Source of the DNA: an uncultured Chthoniobacterales bacterium | GTDB lineage: Bacteria > Verrucomicrobiota > Verrucomicrobiia > Chthoniobacterales > UBA10450 | Assembly (NCBI GenBank): GCA_964235895.1 | Contig: CAXSCV010000001.1 | Location: 20,880-84,879, forward strand | Direction of reading: 5' to 3' | DNA length: 64,000 nucleotides | Shown: positions 1-63,646 of the stretch, piece by piece | Layout of the letters: every line of letters starts with the position of its first letter | Position numbering within the stretch: the stretch's first letter is position 1 | The notes under the pieces: generated by a model | What the model was told of the DNA's origin: nothing | The model's database searches: none | The model's input: the letters and a program-made list of their open reading frames with translations, nothing else | Program-made: the position numbers and the translations under genes

Positions 1-1798
1 CGAAGCCGCTTCCAATTAATCGACCGCTGATCGCTTCGATTTCCTCTTTCAATGCCTGATGACGCGCAGCGTCCTCGCGGCGCGCCTGCTTCGCTTCCTC
101 GCCGACGCGATGATAAGCGACGACATCGCGCAACAAATCGGAATGCGCGACCGCATCCATGTCGCGGTGAAATTGCGCGAGCTGTGTGGCGGTGGTTTTT
201 CCCACTTCGGGAATGCCGAGCGCAAAGATCCAGCGCGAGAGCGGAAAGGTGCGCGCGCGCGCAATCGCCTGCACGGTTTTAGCGGCGTTTTTCTCGCCGA
301 AAATTCGCGGCGATTCCTCGGTGCCGAGATTCAAAGTCGCAAGCTGCTCGACTTGTAACTCGAACAAATCGAGCGGCTCGCGCACCAGTCCGCGCTCGAT
401 CAATTTATCCGCAACGATACCGCCGAGACTCTCGATATCGAGCGCGCCGCGAGCGGTAAAAAATTCCAAACGGCGCGTCGCCTGCGCAGGACAAACAATA
501 TTCGTGCAACGCCAGACGACGAATTCCGGATCGCGATGAACCGGCGCATGACAGACCGGACAGCGCCCGTCGATGTGCGCAAAAAAATCAAACGGCTTCG
601 CTTTCGGCGGACGTTTCGCGAGCACCACTTCGACGACTGCGGGAATGACTTCGCCAGCTTTCTCGATGCGCACGGTGTCGCCGATGCGAATGTCTTTGCG
701 CTCAATTTCGTCGGCGTTGTGCAAGGTCGCGCGCGCGACGCGGCTGCCGCTGACCGTGACCGGTTCCAGCGCGGCGACCGGCGTGAGCACGCCGGTGCGG
801 CCGACTTGAATCAGGATGTCCTGCAGCAACGTCTCGACGCGTTCGGCTTTGTATTTGTAGGCGATCGCCCAACGCGGCGACTTCGCGGTGAACCCAAGCT
901 GCTCGCGTTGCGCGAAGGAATCGACTTTCACGACCGCGCCATCGGTTTGATAAGCGAAATCGCCGCGCACTTCATCGAGCTCGCGGATCGCGCGCAAAAT
1001 TTCCTCGACCGAATCGGCGCGCCACGAACGTTCCGCGATCGGCAGCCCAAGTTTTTTCAGCAACGGAAGAAGCTGCGAATGCGCTTCGAGATTCGCGCCC
1101 TCGATCACGCCCGTGCCATAAAAGACAACGCCGAGCGGACGTTGCGCCGCCATTCCAGGATCGAGTTGTTTGAGCGAACCGGCAGCGGCGTTGCGCGGAT
1201 TGGCAAAAGCGGGAAGTCCATCTCCGGCGCGCTTCAAGTTCAGTTGCGCGAAACCATTTTTATCCATGAAAACTTCGCCGCGCACTTCGAGCAGACGCGG
1301 CGCGTTGCCTTTCAAGCGCGCGGGCACGGAACCAATCGTTCGAAGGTTTTGCGTAATGTCGTCACCGACAGTTCCATCTCCGCGAGTTGCTCCGTAGCGC
1401 AACTCGCCCTCTTCATAGAGAAGCGAAACGGCCACGCCGTCGACCTTCGGCTCGATCACTACGGGAATGGACTCGTTAGGCAAAAGTCGTTGCAGCCGAT
1501 GATAAAAATCCGCCAATTCCTCCTCGGAATAAGTGTTGTCGAGGCTGAGCATCGGCACGCGATGCTCCACCTGCGCGAAGGCTTTCAGCGGCGCGCCGCC
1601 GACTTTTTGCGTCGGTGAATCGGGCGAAGCGAGGTCGGGAAATTGTTTCTCGAGATCCGAAAGTTCGCGATAAAGCGCGTCGTATTCCTGATCGCTTATC
1701 GTCGGCGCCGCTTCTTCGTAATAGCGGCGATTATGTTCCTGAATTTGCGCTCGGAGTTCGGCGATGCGCTTGCTCGCGGCGCGTTCGGAATCAACCAC
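1..1798 (-). CDS. ligA: NAD-dependent DNA ligase LigA (N-terminal ~599 codons; 3' end lies beyond the window start)
   Basis: Not in the ORF track because it runs off the left edge. Manual minus-strand translation from GTG (1796-1798) gives [50 protein letters not shown]..., adenylation motif EPKVDG, Zn finger [27 protein letters not shown] and an HhH-like region. The listed + ORF 536..1618 is its antisense shadow. Confidence 0.9.
1472..1481 (+). repeat. Copy of over-represented 10-mer CTCGTTAGGC
   Basis: Exact match inside ligA. Read on the coding strand as P-N-E. Confidence 0.85.
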
Positions 1799-1861
1799 GC
1801 CGCATCATACGTTTGTCATCGACGCGGGCAATTCGTCGACGCTGCGAAATTTCGCGAGCGA

Positions 1862-60935: not shown

Positions 60936-60945
60936 GCCTAACGAG
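60936..60945 (-). repeat. Copy of over-represented 10-mer (GCCTAACGAG on + strand)
   Basis: Exact match between convergent genes. On the minus strand it reads ACT CGT TAG and gives the TAG stop of the exonuclease-ligase gene. It lies 5 nt after the stop of 59105..60931. Coordinates are anchored on the ORF ends. Confidence 0.85.
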
Positions 60946-63646
60946 TCGTCGCCGGCGCGGCGGAATGGAGATGCGCGCCCGCGAGTTGTCGCGCATAAGA
61001 AAGCGTATCGATCGCGTCCACCGTCTTGTCGCGGCGGATCGCTTTGATGCGCGGAAATCGCAACGCCAAACCACTCGCGTGCCGCGTGCTCGGCTGCACC
61101 GAATCAAAGGCGATCTCCAGCACGACATCGGGTTTCACTTCGCGATAACGACCGCGTTCCGCGACCGTGTTCGCTTTAAAATGCTCGGTCAATTCCGCGA
61201 TCTCGACATCCGTCAGGCCGCTGTAGGCTTTGCCGATCGGCAGCAATTGGCCGTTCGCGTCGTCGCGCACCGCGAAGGTGTAATCGCTCAAAACGTGATT
61301 GCGTTTTCCGTGTCCGAGCTCGGCCGCGACGACCACAACATCGAGCGTGGCGAGTTCCTTTTTGAGTTTGAACCAAAACATTCCGCGCCGGCCCGGCGAA
61401 TAAAAACTCTCGGGATCTTTCACCATCAAACCTTCATTCATGCGACGGCGCGCGAGCTGAAACGCGTTCTCGATTTCATCCGCGGAATGCGCCGGAAAAA
61501 CTTCCGAGATTTGAAATTGCGGCGGCAACTCGAGACGGCGCAAAAGTTCGCGGCGATCGCGCAAAGGCGTTTTCAAAAGCGAGCGGCCGGCGAGGAAAAG
61601 CAAATCGAAAGCAACGAAGACGACGGGCACATCGGCCGAGGCGGCATCGAATAAATCCGCGCCTTCGTGTTTGCGGCCGAGACGTTTTTGCAAATCGAAG
61701 AAGGTAAGTTTGCGCCTATGCTCGAAGGCCATGATCTCGCCATCGAGAATGACTTCCGCGGCGAATCCGCGCGCGCGTTCCGCGATCTCGTGAAATTGAT
61801 TCGTCATCGGCCGGAGATCGCGGGAGAAAATTTCCACGCGCTCCGCACCGCGATGCAGTTGCGCGCGGATGCCATCGAACTTGTCCTCGACGAAAATCGT
61901 CTGCTCGTTAGGCGATTCTTCGGCGAAGCGCGCCCAGATCGCTTCCGCGGTCGGCTCGGGACTGGCCAGCATGCATTTGATCGGACGAAAAAGAGAAAGC
62001 TCAACCGCACCTAACGAGTCATTTTTTGCGAGAAGCGCGCTTTCGCCGATGTCGCCTAACAACATGTTCGCTTCCTTCACTTCGTCGAGCGGCGCGGCGA
62101 AGGCGCTGGCAATCGCTTCTTCGACCAGGCCTTCGCGCAAGCCGATTCGCAGATCGCCGGTGAGAATTTTCACGACGTATTGGCCTTCGCGCGGCGTCAG
62201 TTGGGCGAGGCGCGCTTGCAACAAATCCGTCTTGGCGATCGGACCGCGCGCCTTCTGCAGTTGATCGAAAAACTCTTTCGATTCGATCAGCGAAAATGGC
62301 GCGGGCGCGGTGCGATTTTCCAATGCTTCGAGCGCGCTCTTGCCCGCGTCGCCGTAGCTGCGACCAATTCTTCGCAGCTCGGCTTCGGTCAATTTCGTGG
62401 CGGCGAGGAGCGCACGAAAGATGACCGCCCAGCCAACTTGCAGGGTGCGCGGGTCGCTTTGCGCAAAAGCTTTGCCGGTCAGGTAACGCGTGGCGATCGG
62501 CAACTGTTCCTGGTCTAACGAGTGCAAATATTGCGCGAGCAAACGCACTTTCTCGAGCTTGCCCGGAGTGGCGGCGATTGCTTCGCCGACTTCCGCGAAG
62601 GTGGCGAACTCGGAGGAAATCTTTTCGCGCGCAACGGGCGCGAGGACCGGAGCGGTCGCTCGCGCATTAGTCGGCAAGATGAGCTCGAGCTGGTTTTGTT
62701 CGCTGAGCGCCCAAGCTTCGATGCCGCGGTCGCGCAGGTCGCGCGCGAATTCGGCCGCAAACCCGTGCAACGTGAGCACGCGTTTTGGTTGCACGAGCTC
62801 GACGTAACGAAGCAGGTCGGGGTAATCGGCGTGATCGGAAAGTGGAAAGGCGGCATCGGTTTGATAACGAAAACGCGCGCCTGGATCGACCGCCCAACCG
62901 CTGATCATGGCGACGCGTTTGTTCGGAATTTTCTCGAGCATGCGTGAGCGATTCGCACTCGGCGGACAGATGAGAACTTTGCCCGCGACGTCTTTGGCAT
63001 CGTAGCGTTGGTATTCGCAAAACGATTGCCCGAACTGCTCGTAGATGCGCGTCATCCGATAAACCGAGCCGTGCAACATCGGCGTCAAACCAGCGCCGGC
63101 GAGCGCGCAAAGAATCTCCTGCGCTTTGCCTAACGAGTAACCGAGCAGCACCGGGACCGCGCCTTCTTCGAGCGCATCGCGACTGAAGGCGACGATCTGC
63201 GCGACCACGTCGTCGGTCGGCGGAAAGCGATATCGCGGCAGACCGAAGGTGGTCTCCATGATGAGGGTGTCGGCTTGCCGCCATTCCGTGGCCTCGGCGG
63301 ATTTGCCGGGGCGCAATTTGAAATCGCCGGTGTAGAGAAGCGAGCCGGCGTCGCTTTGCAGGAAAAATTGCGCGGAGCCGAAGATGTGACCGGCCGGTAA
63401 AAGCATGACATCGAGCCCGCGGATATTTGTTAATTCGCCAAAGGGAACGACGTGCTCGTTGCGTTCACCCGGCATGCGGGCCTGCATCAAACGCGCGGTC
63501 CGCGCGGAGACGATAATTTCCTGATGGGGCGCGATGTGATCGCTGTGCGCGTGCGAAACGAAAGCGAGCGGTTTCGCGTCCCACGGATCGAGCCAGAGAT
63601 CCTGCTCGGGCAAGTAAATGCCGCGCTCGTAGCGAACTTGAATCAC
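60938..63646 (-). CDS. Fusion: metallo-beta-lactamase/beta-CASP-type (ligase-associated) exonuclease plus ATP-dependent DNA ligase
   Basis: The N-terminal ~335 aa contain HAHSDH and DHAD motifs (MBL fold). The C-terminal ~550 aa contain the ligase DNA-binding domain, adenylation motif I EDKFDGIRAQ and an OB-fold region. Confidence 0.85.
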   Translation of the reverse strand: MIQVRYERGIYLPEQDLWLDPWDAKPLAFVSHAHSDHIAPHQEIIVSARTARLMQARMPGERNEHVVPFGELTNIRGLDVMLLPAGHIFGSAQFFLQSDAGSLLYTGDFKLRPGKSAEATEWRQADTLIMETTFGLPRYRFPPTDDVVAQIVAFSRDALEEGAVPVLLGYSLGKAQEILCALAGAGLTPMLHGSVYRMTRIYEQFGQSFCEYQRYDAKDVAGKVLICPPSANRSRMLEKIPNKRVAMISGWAVDPGARFRYQTDAAFPLSDHADYPDLLRYVELVQPKRVLTLHGFAAEFARDLRDRGIEAWALSEQNQLELILPTNARATAPVLAPVAREKISSEFATFAEVGEAIAATPGKLEKVRLLAQYLHSLDQEQLPIATRYLTGKAFAQSDPRTLQVGWAVIFRALLAATKLTEAELRRIGRSYGDAGKSALEALENRTAPAPFSLIESKEFFDQLQKARGPIAKTDLLQARLAQLTPREGQYVVKILTGDLRIGLREGLVEEAIASAFAAPLDEVKEANMLLGDIGESALLAKNDSLGAVELSLFRPIKCMLASPEPTAEAIWARFAEESPNEQTIFVEDKFDGIRAQLHRGAERVEIFSRDLRPMTNQFHEIAERARGFAAEVILDGEIMAFEHRRKLTFFDLQKRLGRKHEGADLFDAASADVPVVFVAFDLLFLAGRSLLKTPLRDRRELLRRLELPPQFQISEVFPAHSADEIENAFQLARRRMNEGLMVKDPESFYSPGRRGMFWFKLKKELATLDVVVVAAELGHGKRNHVLSDYTFAVRDDANGQLLPIGKAYSGLTDVEIAELTEHFKANTVAERGRYREVKPDVVLEIAFDSVQPSTRHASGLALRFPRIKAIRRDKTVDAIDTLSYARQLAGAHLHSAAPATTR
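61904..61913 (+). repeat. Copy of over-represented 10-mer CTCGTTAGGC
   Basis: Exact match in the exonuclease-ligase gene (minus strand). Read as P-N-E. Confidence 0.85.
63128..63137 (-). repeat. Copy of over-represented 10-mer (GCCTAACGAG on + strand)
   Basis: Exact match in the exonuclease-ligase gene. Read as S-L-G. Confidence 0.9.

Follow-up and report, generated by a model that had tools for sequence, protein, structure and literature searches.

A hyper-abundant asymmetric DNA word with uptake-signal-like features in a Chthoniobacterales genome

Why should a single short DNA word recur at close intervals, on both strands and inside unrelated genes, in a bacterial genome? The question is raised by 64,000 nucleotides of an uncultured Chthoniobacterales bacterium (contig CAXSCV010000001.1, positions 20,880 to 84,879; this whole stretch is hereafter called the window), in which CTCGTTAGGC has the highest count of any 10-mer. 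With its favoured flanks the word reads A-CTCGTTAGGC-G, the 12-mer ACTCGTTAGGCG. A preliminary description of the window had proposed a nucleotide-level signal resembling the DNA uptake sequence (DUS) of Neisseria and the uptake signal sequence (USS) of Pasteurellaceae. We find that selection or drive acts on the word at the nucleotide level, and not on a peptide, and that its enrichment is not confined to the window but spans a clade of uncultured Verrucomicrobia from soil; what it does is weighed below, where a tag for self DNA is the reading that we favour.

Counted on both strands, the window holds 28 exact copies, 17 on the + and 11 on the - strand, and all of those listed in the preliminary description were recovered. 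Dinucleotide-preserving shuffles contain a mean of 0.05 copies and at most 2, and an order-4 Markov model fitted to the window's own sequence predicts 0.88, so that the excess claimed earlier lies between more than 30-fold and about 500-fold, depending on the null model. The remaining frequent k-mers are all CG-rich and of low complexity, and with the motif masked no second significant word was found within the window. A further 31 copies carry one mismatch, bringing the total at up to one mismatch to 59 versus 2.8 expected. Two-mismatch copies are not in excess (39 versus about 45 under codon shuffling). These counts correspond to one 10-mer per 2.3 kb, and one copy with up to one mismatch per 1.1 kb.

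Genes were called from open reading frame (ORF) length and codon-position GC content and then checked against Pfam. Between 22 and 24 of the 28 exact copies lie wholly inside genes, the lower count setting apart 4 that straddle a stop codon, and 2 are intergenic (27171 and 58756). The 26 copies in or overlapping genes are read as S-L-G (10 copies), P-N-E (5), L-T-S or L-T-R (4), L-V-R (2), Ala-TAA stop (4) and Arg-TAG stop (1). The tally first given agrees except that it had nine S-L-G and five Ala-TAA readings; the copy at 58756 follows by 3 nt the stop of a well-coding ORF (58124-58753) and is not at the end of a minus-strand gene. The host genes were said to be unrelated (ligA, actB, ctaD, ctaB, panC, glycosyltransferases and a ligase), and Pfam supports these identities as ligA, ActB-like, COX1, UbiA/CtaB, panC, glycosyltransferases and ATP-dependent ligase.

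The codons used point the same way. Among the window's proteins, 12 of 16 S-L-G tripeptides are spelled TCG-TTA-GGC versus 1.1% predicted from codon usage, and 5 of 8 P-N-E tripeptides are spelled CCT-AAC-GAG versus 1.5% predicted. Of 17 TAA stops, 4 stand within GCC-TAA-CGAG, and a fifth TAA within a one-mismatch copy (CCC-TAA-CGAG, in cmk). The word thus appears in six reading contexts on both strands and uses the rare codons TTA, CTA and CCT. Synonymous-codon shuffling abolishes the signal; 3.3 copies remain because the stop-codon and intergenic copies lie outside the shuffled codons. An imprint on the proteome is also visible, with 16 SLG tripeptides versus 7.4 and 8 PNE versus 1.8 expected from amino-acid frequencies; known uptake sequences roughly double the frequency of the tripeptides that they encode (PMC2817400). 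The frame tally, the codon shuffle and the codon spelling together uphold the claim that the signal acts on DNA and not on peptides.

The word also supplies 5 of the window's 48 stop codons (4 TAA and 1 TAG, at 3080, 24573, 38898, 48608 and 60938), and a one-mismatch copy supplies a sixth (58118, cmk). The word has thus set, for these genes, both the last amino acid (Ala or Arg) and which stop codon is used. The exact copies, with strand and context, are as follows.

1472..1481, +: in ligA (2-1804, -), antisense, L-P-N-E
3076..3085, +: overlaps the stop (GCC-TAA) of an HtrA-like protease gene (3080-4933, -)
6329..6338, -: in ORF 5456-6415 (-), sense, Y-S-L-G
6918..6927, +: in the HMBD gene (6406-7905, +), sense, H-S-L-G; orthologous copy in relative L250, one-mismatch copy in L247
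7100..7109, -: in the HMBD gene, antisense, R-L-T-S; specific to the window
7500..7509, +: in the HMBD gene, sense, Y-S-L-G; orthologous copy in L250
7968..7977, -: in a DUF4198 gene (7867-8736, -), sense, L-V-R-R
8570..8579, +: in the DUF4198 gene, antisense, R-L-T-S
10521..10530, +: in the ActB-like gene (9727-13149, +), sense, L-S-L-G
11835..11844, +: in the ActB-like gene, sense, V-S-L-G
22997..23006, +: in the COX1 gene (22686-24575, +), sense, N-S-L-G; relative L002 has the same word here
24570..24579, -: overlaps the stop (GCC-TAA) of the COX1 gene
27171..27180, +: intergenic, 10 nt past a COX2-like gene (26268-27161)
29034..29043, -: in the UbiA/CtaB gene (28289-29206, +), antisense, G-L-T-S
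29355..29364, +: in the SCO1 gene (29203-29856, +), sense, D-S-L-G
30944..30953, -: in a GT4 glycosyltransferase gene (30762-31988, -), sense, L-V-R-P
38894..38903, +: overlaps the stop (GCC-TAA) of a thioesterase gene (38898-39335, -)
39817..39826, +: in a lipid-A acyltransferase/heptosyltransferase gene (39337-41295, -), antisense, A-P-N-E
41027..41036, +: in the same gene (39337-41295), antisense, S-L-T-R
41146..41155, -: in the same gene (39337-41295), sense, Y-S-L-G
42053..42062, -: in a GT2 gene (41310-43733, +), antisense, A-P-N-E
43718..43727, +: in the GT2 gene, sense, F-S-L-G, 6 nt upstream of the stop
45488..45497, -: in panC (45204-46037, +), antisense, S-P-N-E
48604..48613, +: overlaps the stop (GCC-TAA) of a dynamin-like GTPase gene (48608-50332, -); partial inverted partner at 48617-48623
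58756..58765, +: intergenic, 3 nt past the stop of ORF 58124-58753 (+)
60936..60945, -: overlaps the stop (CGT-TAG) of a metallo-beta-lactamase (MBL)/ATP-dependent DNA ligase gene (60938-63646, -)
61904..61913, +: in the MBL/ATP-dependent DNA ligase gene, antisense, S-P-N-E
63128..63137, -: in the MBL/ATP-dependent DNA ligase gene, sense, Y-S-L-G

The word is non-palindromic, its reverse complement being GCCTAACGAG, and holds no palindrome inside. Exact copies are preceded by A in 22 of 28 cases and followed by G in 18 of 28, the same counts as first reported; the 12-mer has 15 exact copies and 47 with up to two mismatches, versus 5.2 expected. Information in the flanks is close to zero outside -2 to +2, apart from a weak signal at +4. 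No 14-mer containing the word occurs more than three times in the window, and no longer repeat family surrounds the copies there. Among the one-mismatch copies the changes gather at the ends of the word, at position 1 (12 copies), 9 (8) and 10 (4), with 4 more at position 3, and the inner GTTAG (positions 4-8) is nearly invariant. The conserved unit is therefore the 9-mer TCGTTAGGC with lineage-specific flanks, which in the lineage of the window gives A-C-TCGTTAGGC-G; this core has 40 copies in the window, or one per 1.6 kb. All ten of the one-mismatch examples named in the preliminary description are present among the 31 listed here, although the one given at 27699 starts at 27700.

4213..4222, -: ATCGTTAGGC, position 1 C>A
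7452..7461, -: CTCGTTCGGC, position 7 A>C
10960..10969, +: CTCGTTAGGG, position 10 C>G
15948..15957, -: GTCGTTAGGC, position 1 C>G
18072..18081, +: CTCGTTAGTC, position 9 G>T
18608..18617, +: CTTGTTAGGC, position 3 C>T
21258..21267, -: CTCGTTAGAC, position 9 G>A
22105..22114, +: GTCGTTAGGC, position 1 C>G
23941..23950, -: CCCGTTAGGC, position 2 T>C
26146..26155, +: CTTGTTAGGC, position 3 C>T
27700..27709, -: GTCGTTAGGC, position 1 C>G
37022..37031, +: GTCGTTAGGC, position 1 C>G
37569..37578, -: CTCGTTAGCC, position 9 G>C
38004..38013, +: TTCGTTAGGC, position 1 C>T
38311..38320, +: TTCGTTAGGC, position 1 C>T
39614..39623, +: GTCGTTAGGC, position 1 C>G
40114..40123, +: CTTGTTAGGC, position 3 C>T
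40441..40450, +: CTCGTTAGTC, position 9 G>T
41585..41594, -: CTCGTTAGTC, position 9 G>T
42331..42340, -: GTCGTTAGGC, position 1 C>G
44862..44871, -: CTCGTTAGAC, position 9 G>A
45617..45626, +: CTTGTTAGGC, position 3 C>T
52154..52163, +: GTCGTTAGGC, position 1 C>G
53858..53867, +: TTCGTTAGGC, position 1 C>T
56529..56538, -: GTCGTTAGGC, position 1 C>G
56863..56872, +: CTCGTTAGGG, position 10 C>G
57751..57760, +: CTCGTTAGTC, position 9 G>T
58115..58124, -: CTCGTTAGGG, position 10 C>G; overlaps the stop of cmk, 57449-58120 (CCC-TAA-CGAG)
62009..62018, -: CTCGTTAGGT, position 10 C>T
62513..62522, -: CTCGTTAGAC, position 9 G>A
63696..63705, +: CTCGTGAGGC, position 6 T>G

All four position-3 changes (18608, 26146, 40114 and 45617) replace C by T in the word's CpG (CTTGTTAGGC), and the complementary G>A change at this CpG was never seen among the 31. 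This recurrence may reflect deamination of a strand-specifically modified C, or chance.

Spacing of the copies is Poisson-like (coefficient of variation 1.0-1.2). The largest gap is 11.2 kb between exact copies (P = 0.12) and 6.1 kb at up to one mismatch (P = 0.16), neither of which is significant. The longest copy-free stretch (30953-37022) contains a gene for a XerC/D-type tyrosine recombinase (35136-36296, -) and, adjoining it, one for a 604-aa protein without a Pfam match (33269-35083). Depletion of the word in a putative island carrying this integrase (30.9-37.0 kb) was considered and rejected on the same P of 0.16. Rfam and tRNA scans of the window returned no Rfam family and no tRNA.

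Neither transcription nor replication appears to orient the word. The 26 exact copies in or overlapping genes divide into 13 sense and 13 antisense, and copies with up to one mismatch into 34 on the + and 25 on the - strand. Strand use was then compared over 16 loci with at least four core copies each (135 core copies in all; no closed chromosome is among them). The majority-strand fraction of 0.637 stands beside 0.626 expected without bias versus 0.70-0.82 at a 75% skew, and heterogeneity across loci is not significant (chi-square P = 0.43). The lack of transcription bias and of an orientation switch noted at the outset is thus borne out, which argues against a Chi or KOPS function.

We then asked how far the word extends beyond the window. 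The COX1 protein encoded in the window is 82-89% identical to proteins of metagenome-assembled genomes labelled Verrucomicrobiae, Spartobacteria and Verrucomicrobia, and the homologues of the HMBD protein are labelled Chthoniobacterales; both agree with the earlier assignment to a Planctomycetes-Verrucomicrobia-Chlamydiae (PVC) or Verrucomicrobia-like genome. The loci of these genomes (L001-L003) share gene order with the window, their nucleotide identity to it being about 70-79%. The closest COX1 relatives hold only 0-1 exact 10-mer copies in 11-22 kb, and the word is therefore lineage-specific. Of six relatives picked by protein homology alone, without regard to the motif, three carry the core TCGTTAGGC in number: L251 (10 core copies in 21.5 kb, on a 1.58-Mb contig), L250 (10 in 20.6 kb) and L247 (6 in 21.4 kb). 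The window and L251 have the same AC- prefix, which is looser in L250 and L247, a dialect-like variation of the flank. Two others, L248 and L252, have none or a single core copy. A metagenome scan seeded with one 14-mer collected 120 stretches (746 kb), of which 35 together contain 68 non-seed copies of the 9-mer, which puts extra copies on at least 35 independent contigs; the enriched stretches have no blastn similarity to the window. Word-bearing assemblies stem from many independent projects and assemblers, and no copy was found in 1.15 Mb of genomes from other phyla. Four word-bearing lineages cluster in a single-gene neighbour-joining tree, which is weak evidence and has no support values. 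Viral contigs were also considered as carriers and rejected, since the 46 matches to the 14-mer ACTCGTTAGGCGCG are single, fall in no enriched locus and are consistent with chance.

The origin of the copies can be read from orthologous sites, compared in L001-L010 for the copies of the window and in L247, L248 and L250 for the HMBD gene. Relatives lacking the word show synonymous or near-synonymous near-matches at such sites; at COX1 N-S-L-G, for instance, these are AACTCGTTGGGC, AACTCACTCGGT and AACTCGTTCGGG. In the HMBD gene two S-L-G copies are common to the window and L250 and the third copy is found in the window only; L247 has a one-mismatch copy at one of the two shared sites, and L248 has TCATTTGGC and CCGCTCGGC at these sites. 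Where the window has stop-codon copies, its relatives have unrelated sequence. Copies have therefore been gained by point substitution, continuously and wherever tolerated, and not by insertion.

What kind of signal behaves in this way? The hyper-abundance, invariant core, one-mismatch halo, strand symmetry and random spacing, together with the substitution gains, the tripeptide enrichment and the clade restriction with flank dialects, favour a tag of the uptake-signal type. We therefore give roughly even odds, on this comparative evidence, to the word being a genome-wide 'self' tag like DUS and USS that accumulates by molecular drive. Such drive has a described signature in DNA uptake enhancing sequences (PMC1939737, PMC2817400, PMC3630211), whose over-representation falls in two sharp drops as mismatches are added (PMC1939737). 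Under this reading, a sequence-specific DNA-binding component of the cell's pathway for DNA import and recombination would prefer fragments that carry the word, and mutations creating or improving a copy would be over-transmitted through recombination between relatives. The word would then build up where coding tolerates it, that is at synonymous sites, in tolerant tripeptides, across the last codon and stop, and in spacers, and mutational erosion of copies would leave the one-mismatch halo. We infer that the reader of the word would be an uptake or transformation machine.

Comparison with known systems supports the likeness in part. DUS and USS are found about once every 1.1-1.2 kb, a density comparable in order of magnitude to that of the present word. 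The DUS of Neisseriaceae (GCCGTCTGAA, the 12-mer AT-DUS, which has dialects and whose reader is the minor pilin ComP) is likewise an asymmetric 10-12-mer with an invariant core and looser ends, found about once per 1-2 kb equally on both strands, in several coding frames, with tripeptide enrichment, a one-mismatch halo and clade-specific flank dialects (PMC3630211, PMC2817400). However, ORFs hold only about 35% of DUS, and many DUS form inverted terminator pairs, whereas the present word is mostly genic and essentially unpaired; it also belongs to a different phylum, and its relatives carry an unrelated word rather than a dialect differing by 1-3 bases. The USS of Pasteurellaceae (AAGTGCGGT / ACAAGCGGT) is, like the present word, mostly genic (65% in H. 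influenzae, PMC2817400), with frames set by tolerable tripeptides, and spreads by point substitution and drive without orientation bias. Its flanks, unlike the near-empty ones seen here beyond -2 to +2, are AT-rich and helically phased, and two unrelated words coexist in some of the genomes studied here. The word is not embedded in an extended conserved element, mostly intergenic and often palindromic, in contrast to repetitive extragenic palindromes and miniature inverted-repeat transposable elements (REP/MITE). The resemblance to DUS and USS claimed in the preliminary description thus holds for density, symmetry, coding location and halo, but not for terminator-hairpin pairing. In our analysis the word would represent a DUS/USS-like signature in a new phylum, with other placement habits and with word turnover or coexistence, and is a putative member of that functional class.

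Several points weigh against a self tag read by an uptake machine. No gene for comEA, comEC, dprA, pilQ or a minor pilin was found in the window or among the annotated loci of relatives, and a regular expression for the prepilin motif had no match in 30 loci. Hyper-abundant words of unknown, possibly non-uptake origin exist, HIP1 being an example. We found no literature report of natural transformation in this clade. Roughly half of DUS and USS copies are placed in terminators, where they often form inverted pairs (bioRxiv 10.1101/2025.10.24.684340). Of the 59 copies in the window, a single one has even a partial inverted partner: after the copy at 48604 come GTG and then GCCTAAC, an incomplete inverted copy (48617-48623; region 48604-48626), giving a 7-bp stem between convergent genes that folds no better than shuffles (z = -1.0). 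The terminator habit is therefore absent. Finally, in sister lineages the word is absent or a different word, AAGATCGACAA, stands in its place, and in L146 (1693-11401), L235 (1011-11120) and L163 (102-6819) the two words are interleaved at sub-kb scale. We know of no uptake signal in which two unrelated words are interleaved, and such a pattern would require two specificities per cell.

The second word was found in the closest long relative, L001, as (A)AGATCGACA(A/T), with 8-9 copies in 10 kb on both strands (3768-13374). It occurs 7 times per 21.5 kb in the motif-blind relative L253 (3581-20209), and AGATCGACA is also abundant in L191, L235, L163 and L150. The window holds a single copy, next to its 40 copies of the first core. 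The second word is read in at least five frames or orientations, so it is likewise a DNA-level word, but its background is higher (0.02 per kb in unrelated genomes), K-I-D and V-D-L being common peptides. In L146 the TCGTTAGG core is present 9 times and GATCGACA 10 times within 12 kb; interleaving on this scale means that the two words coexist in one genome and are not a mosaic of imported blocks.

The idea that each relative has a word of its own held only in part, most candidate words being artefacts. Candidates from L004 (14364-16092), L028 (11680-13531) and L008 are protein repeats, and those from L009, L074 and L076 are tandem repeats, as is that from L252 (18402-20807), where the heptamer AATCGTG forms short local arrays in three places. 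The repeated 9-11-mers of L004, L028 and L009 lie on one strand with spacing in multiples of 3, or in tandem. The sole further dispersed DNA-level word to remain among the relatives is AGATCGACA. It is conceivable, though we think it improbable, that there are lineage-specific, interchangeable genomic 'passwords' (at least two, TCGTTAGGC and AGATCGACA) read by a new modular DNA self-recognition system, which would not be the pilin-based uptake filter of proteobacteria and might operate without transformation.

The same results bear on explanations that need no uptake. The copies could form a binding-site array, under weak selection, for an abundant DNA-binding protein that organises the nucleoid or recognises self in defence or repair, with lineage-specific proteins giving lineage-specific words. 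An asymmetric 9-12-nt word with an invariant inner core fits a protein footprint, the terminator habit is missing, and lineage-specific words, some of them interleaved, are easier to reconcile with two binding proteins than with two uptake specificities. Selection on thousands of randomly placed sites is, however, weak next to drive, and gains by substitution at synonymous sites and the proteome imprint are exactly as drive predicts. Known chromosome-organising sites (parS, matS, KOPS) are few, palindromic or strand-skewed, and no candidate protein came to light. We therefore regard such an array as unlikely.

Somewhat less probable still is a biased repair or mutation process, in which a DNA methyltransferase and a Vsr-like mismatch endonuclease convert near-matches into the word, as proposed for HIP1. 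Like the present word, HIP1 of cyanobacteria (GCGATCGC) is hyper-abundant, spread by substitution, found in coding and non-coding DNA, lineage-specific and of unsettled function; unlike it, HIP1 is a palindromic 8-mer tied to methyltransferase sites. Point-substitution gains, a halo limited to one mismatch, the C>T changes at the CpG of the word and words that vary by lineage like mobile methyltransferase specificities would all suit such a process. Methyltransferase and Vsr specificities, however, span 4-7 bases, and not 10-12 contiguous asymmetric ones, the mismatches gather at the word ends (positions 1, 9 and 10) and not at one methylated base, and the window has no gene for a DNA methyltransferase or Vsr.

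A polar signal steering a recombination nuclease or a DNA translocase, like Chi or KOPS, is very improbable. These too are over-represented asymmetric words in core genes or genomes, and Chi is lineage-specific, but they measure 5-8 nt, are enriched only a few-fold and are strongly co-oriented with replication; here the word has 10-12 nt and a far larger excess, and the strand counts of the 16 loci exclude a 75% skew. The view that no signal exists, and that the word stems from a preference for certain peptides or codons, from a piece of a longer mobile repeat or from faulty assembly, can be dismissed: S-L-G is indeed the commonest reading (10 of 28) and L250 has two orthologous SLG sites in common with the window, but the frame tally, codon shuffle, codon spelling and absence of a repeat family refute it, as does the presence of the word in many independent assemblies.

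If the uptake-like self tag is real, its implications are broad. Full-text searches turned up the word in neither orientation and no uptake signal reported for Verrucomicrobia, as the preliminary description had supposed; a 2025 survey describes such signals only for two proteobacterial families, Neisseriaceae and Pasteurellaceae. Uptake tags are the classic example of a signal, selfish or sexual, that remodels entire genomes and proteomes. A self tag in these abundant, uncultured Verrucomicrobia would imply that kin-biased DNA exchange is far more widespread than assumed and would offer direct access to gene flow in unculturable organisms. A comparative-genomic search for the reader would become possible by contrasting sister lineages that have the first word, the second, both or none. 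Should the reader prove not to be an uptake machine, the word would exemplify a novel type of genome-wide DNA signal. The word also has a practical use as a k-mer marker, both in binning and in following the clade's DNA through metagenomes.

Two further features of the window deserve mention. The gene at 60938-63646 (-) encodes a 902-aa protein in which an N-terminal metallo-beta-lactamase/RMMBL (beta-CASP-like) nuclease domain is fused to a complete ATP-dependent DNA ligase comprising N, adenylation and OB domains; the gene contains the word 3 times exactly and 2 times with one mismatch. A respiratory block at 9044-30765, syntenic with L001 and L002, encodes a multihaem cytochrome c, Alternative Complex III (ActB-like, NrfD/ActC and ActD), COX2, CtaB and SCO1, and includes two genes for haem-copper oxidase subunit I (18030-19535 and 22686-24575).

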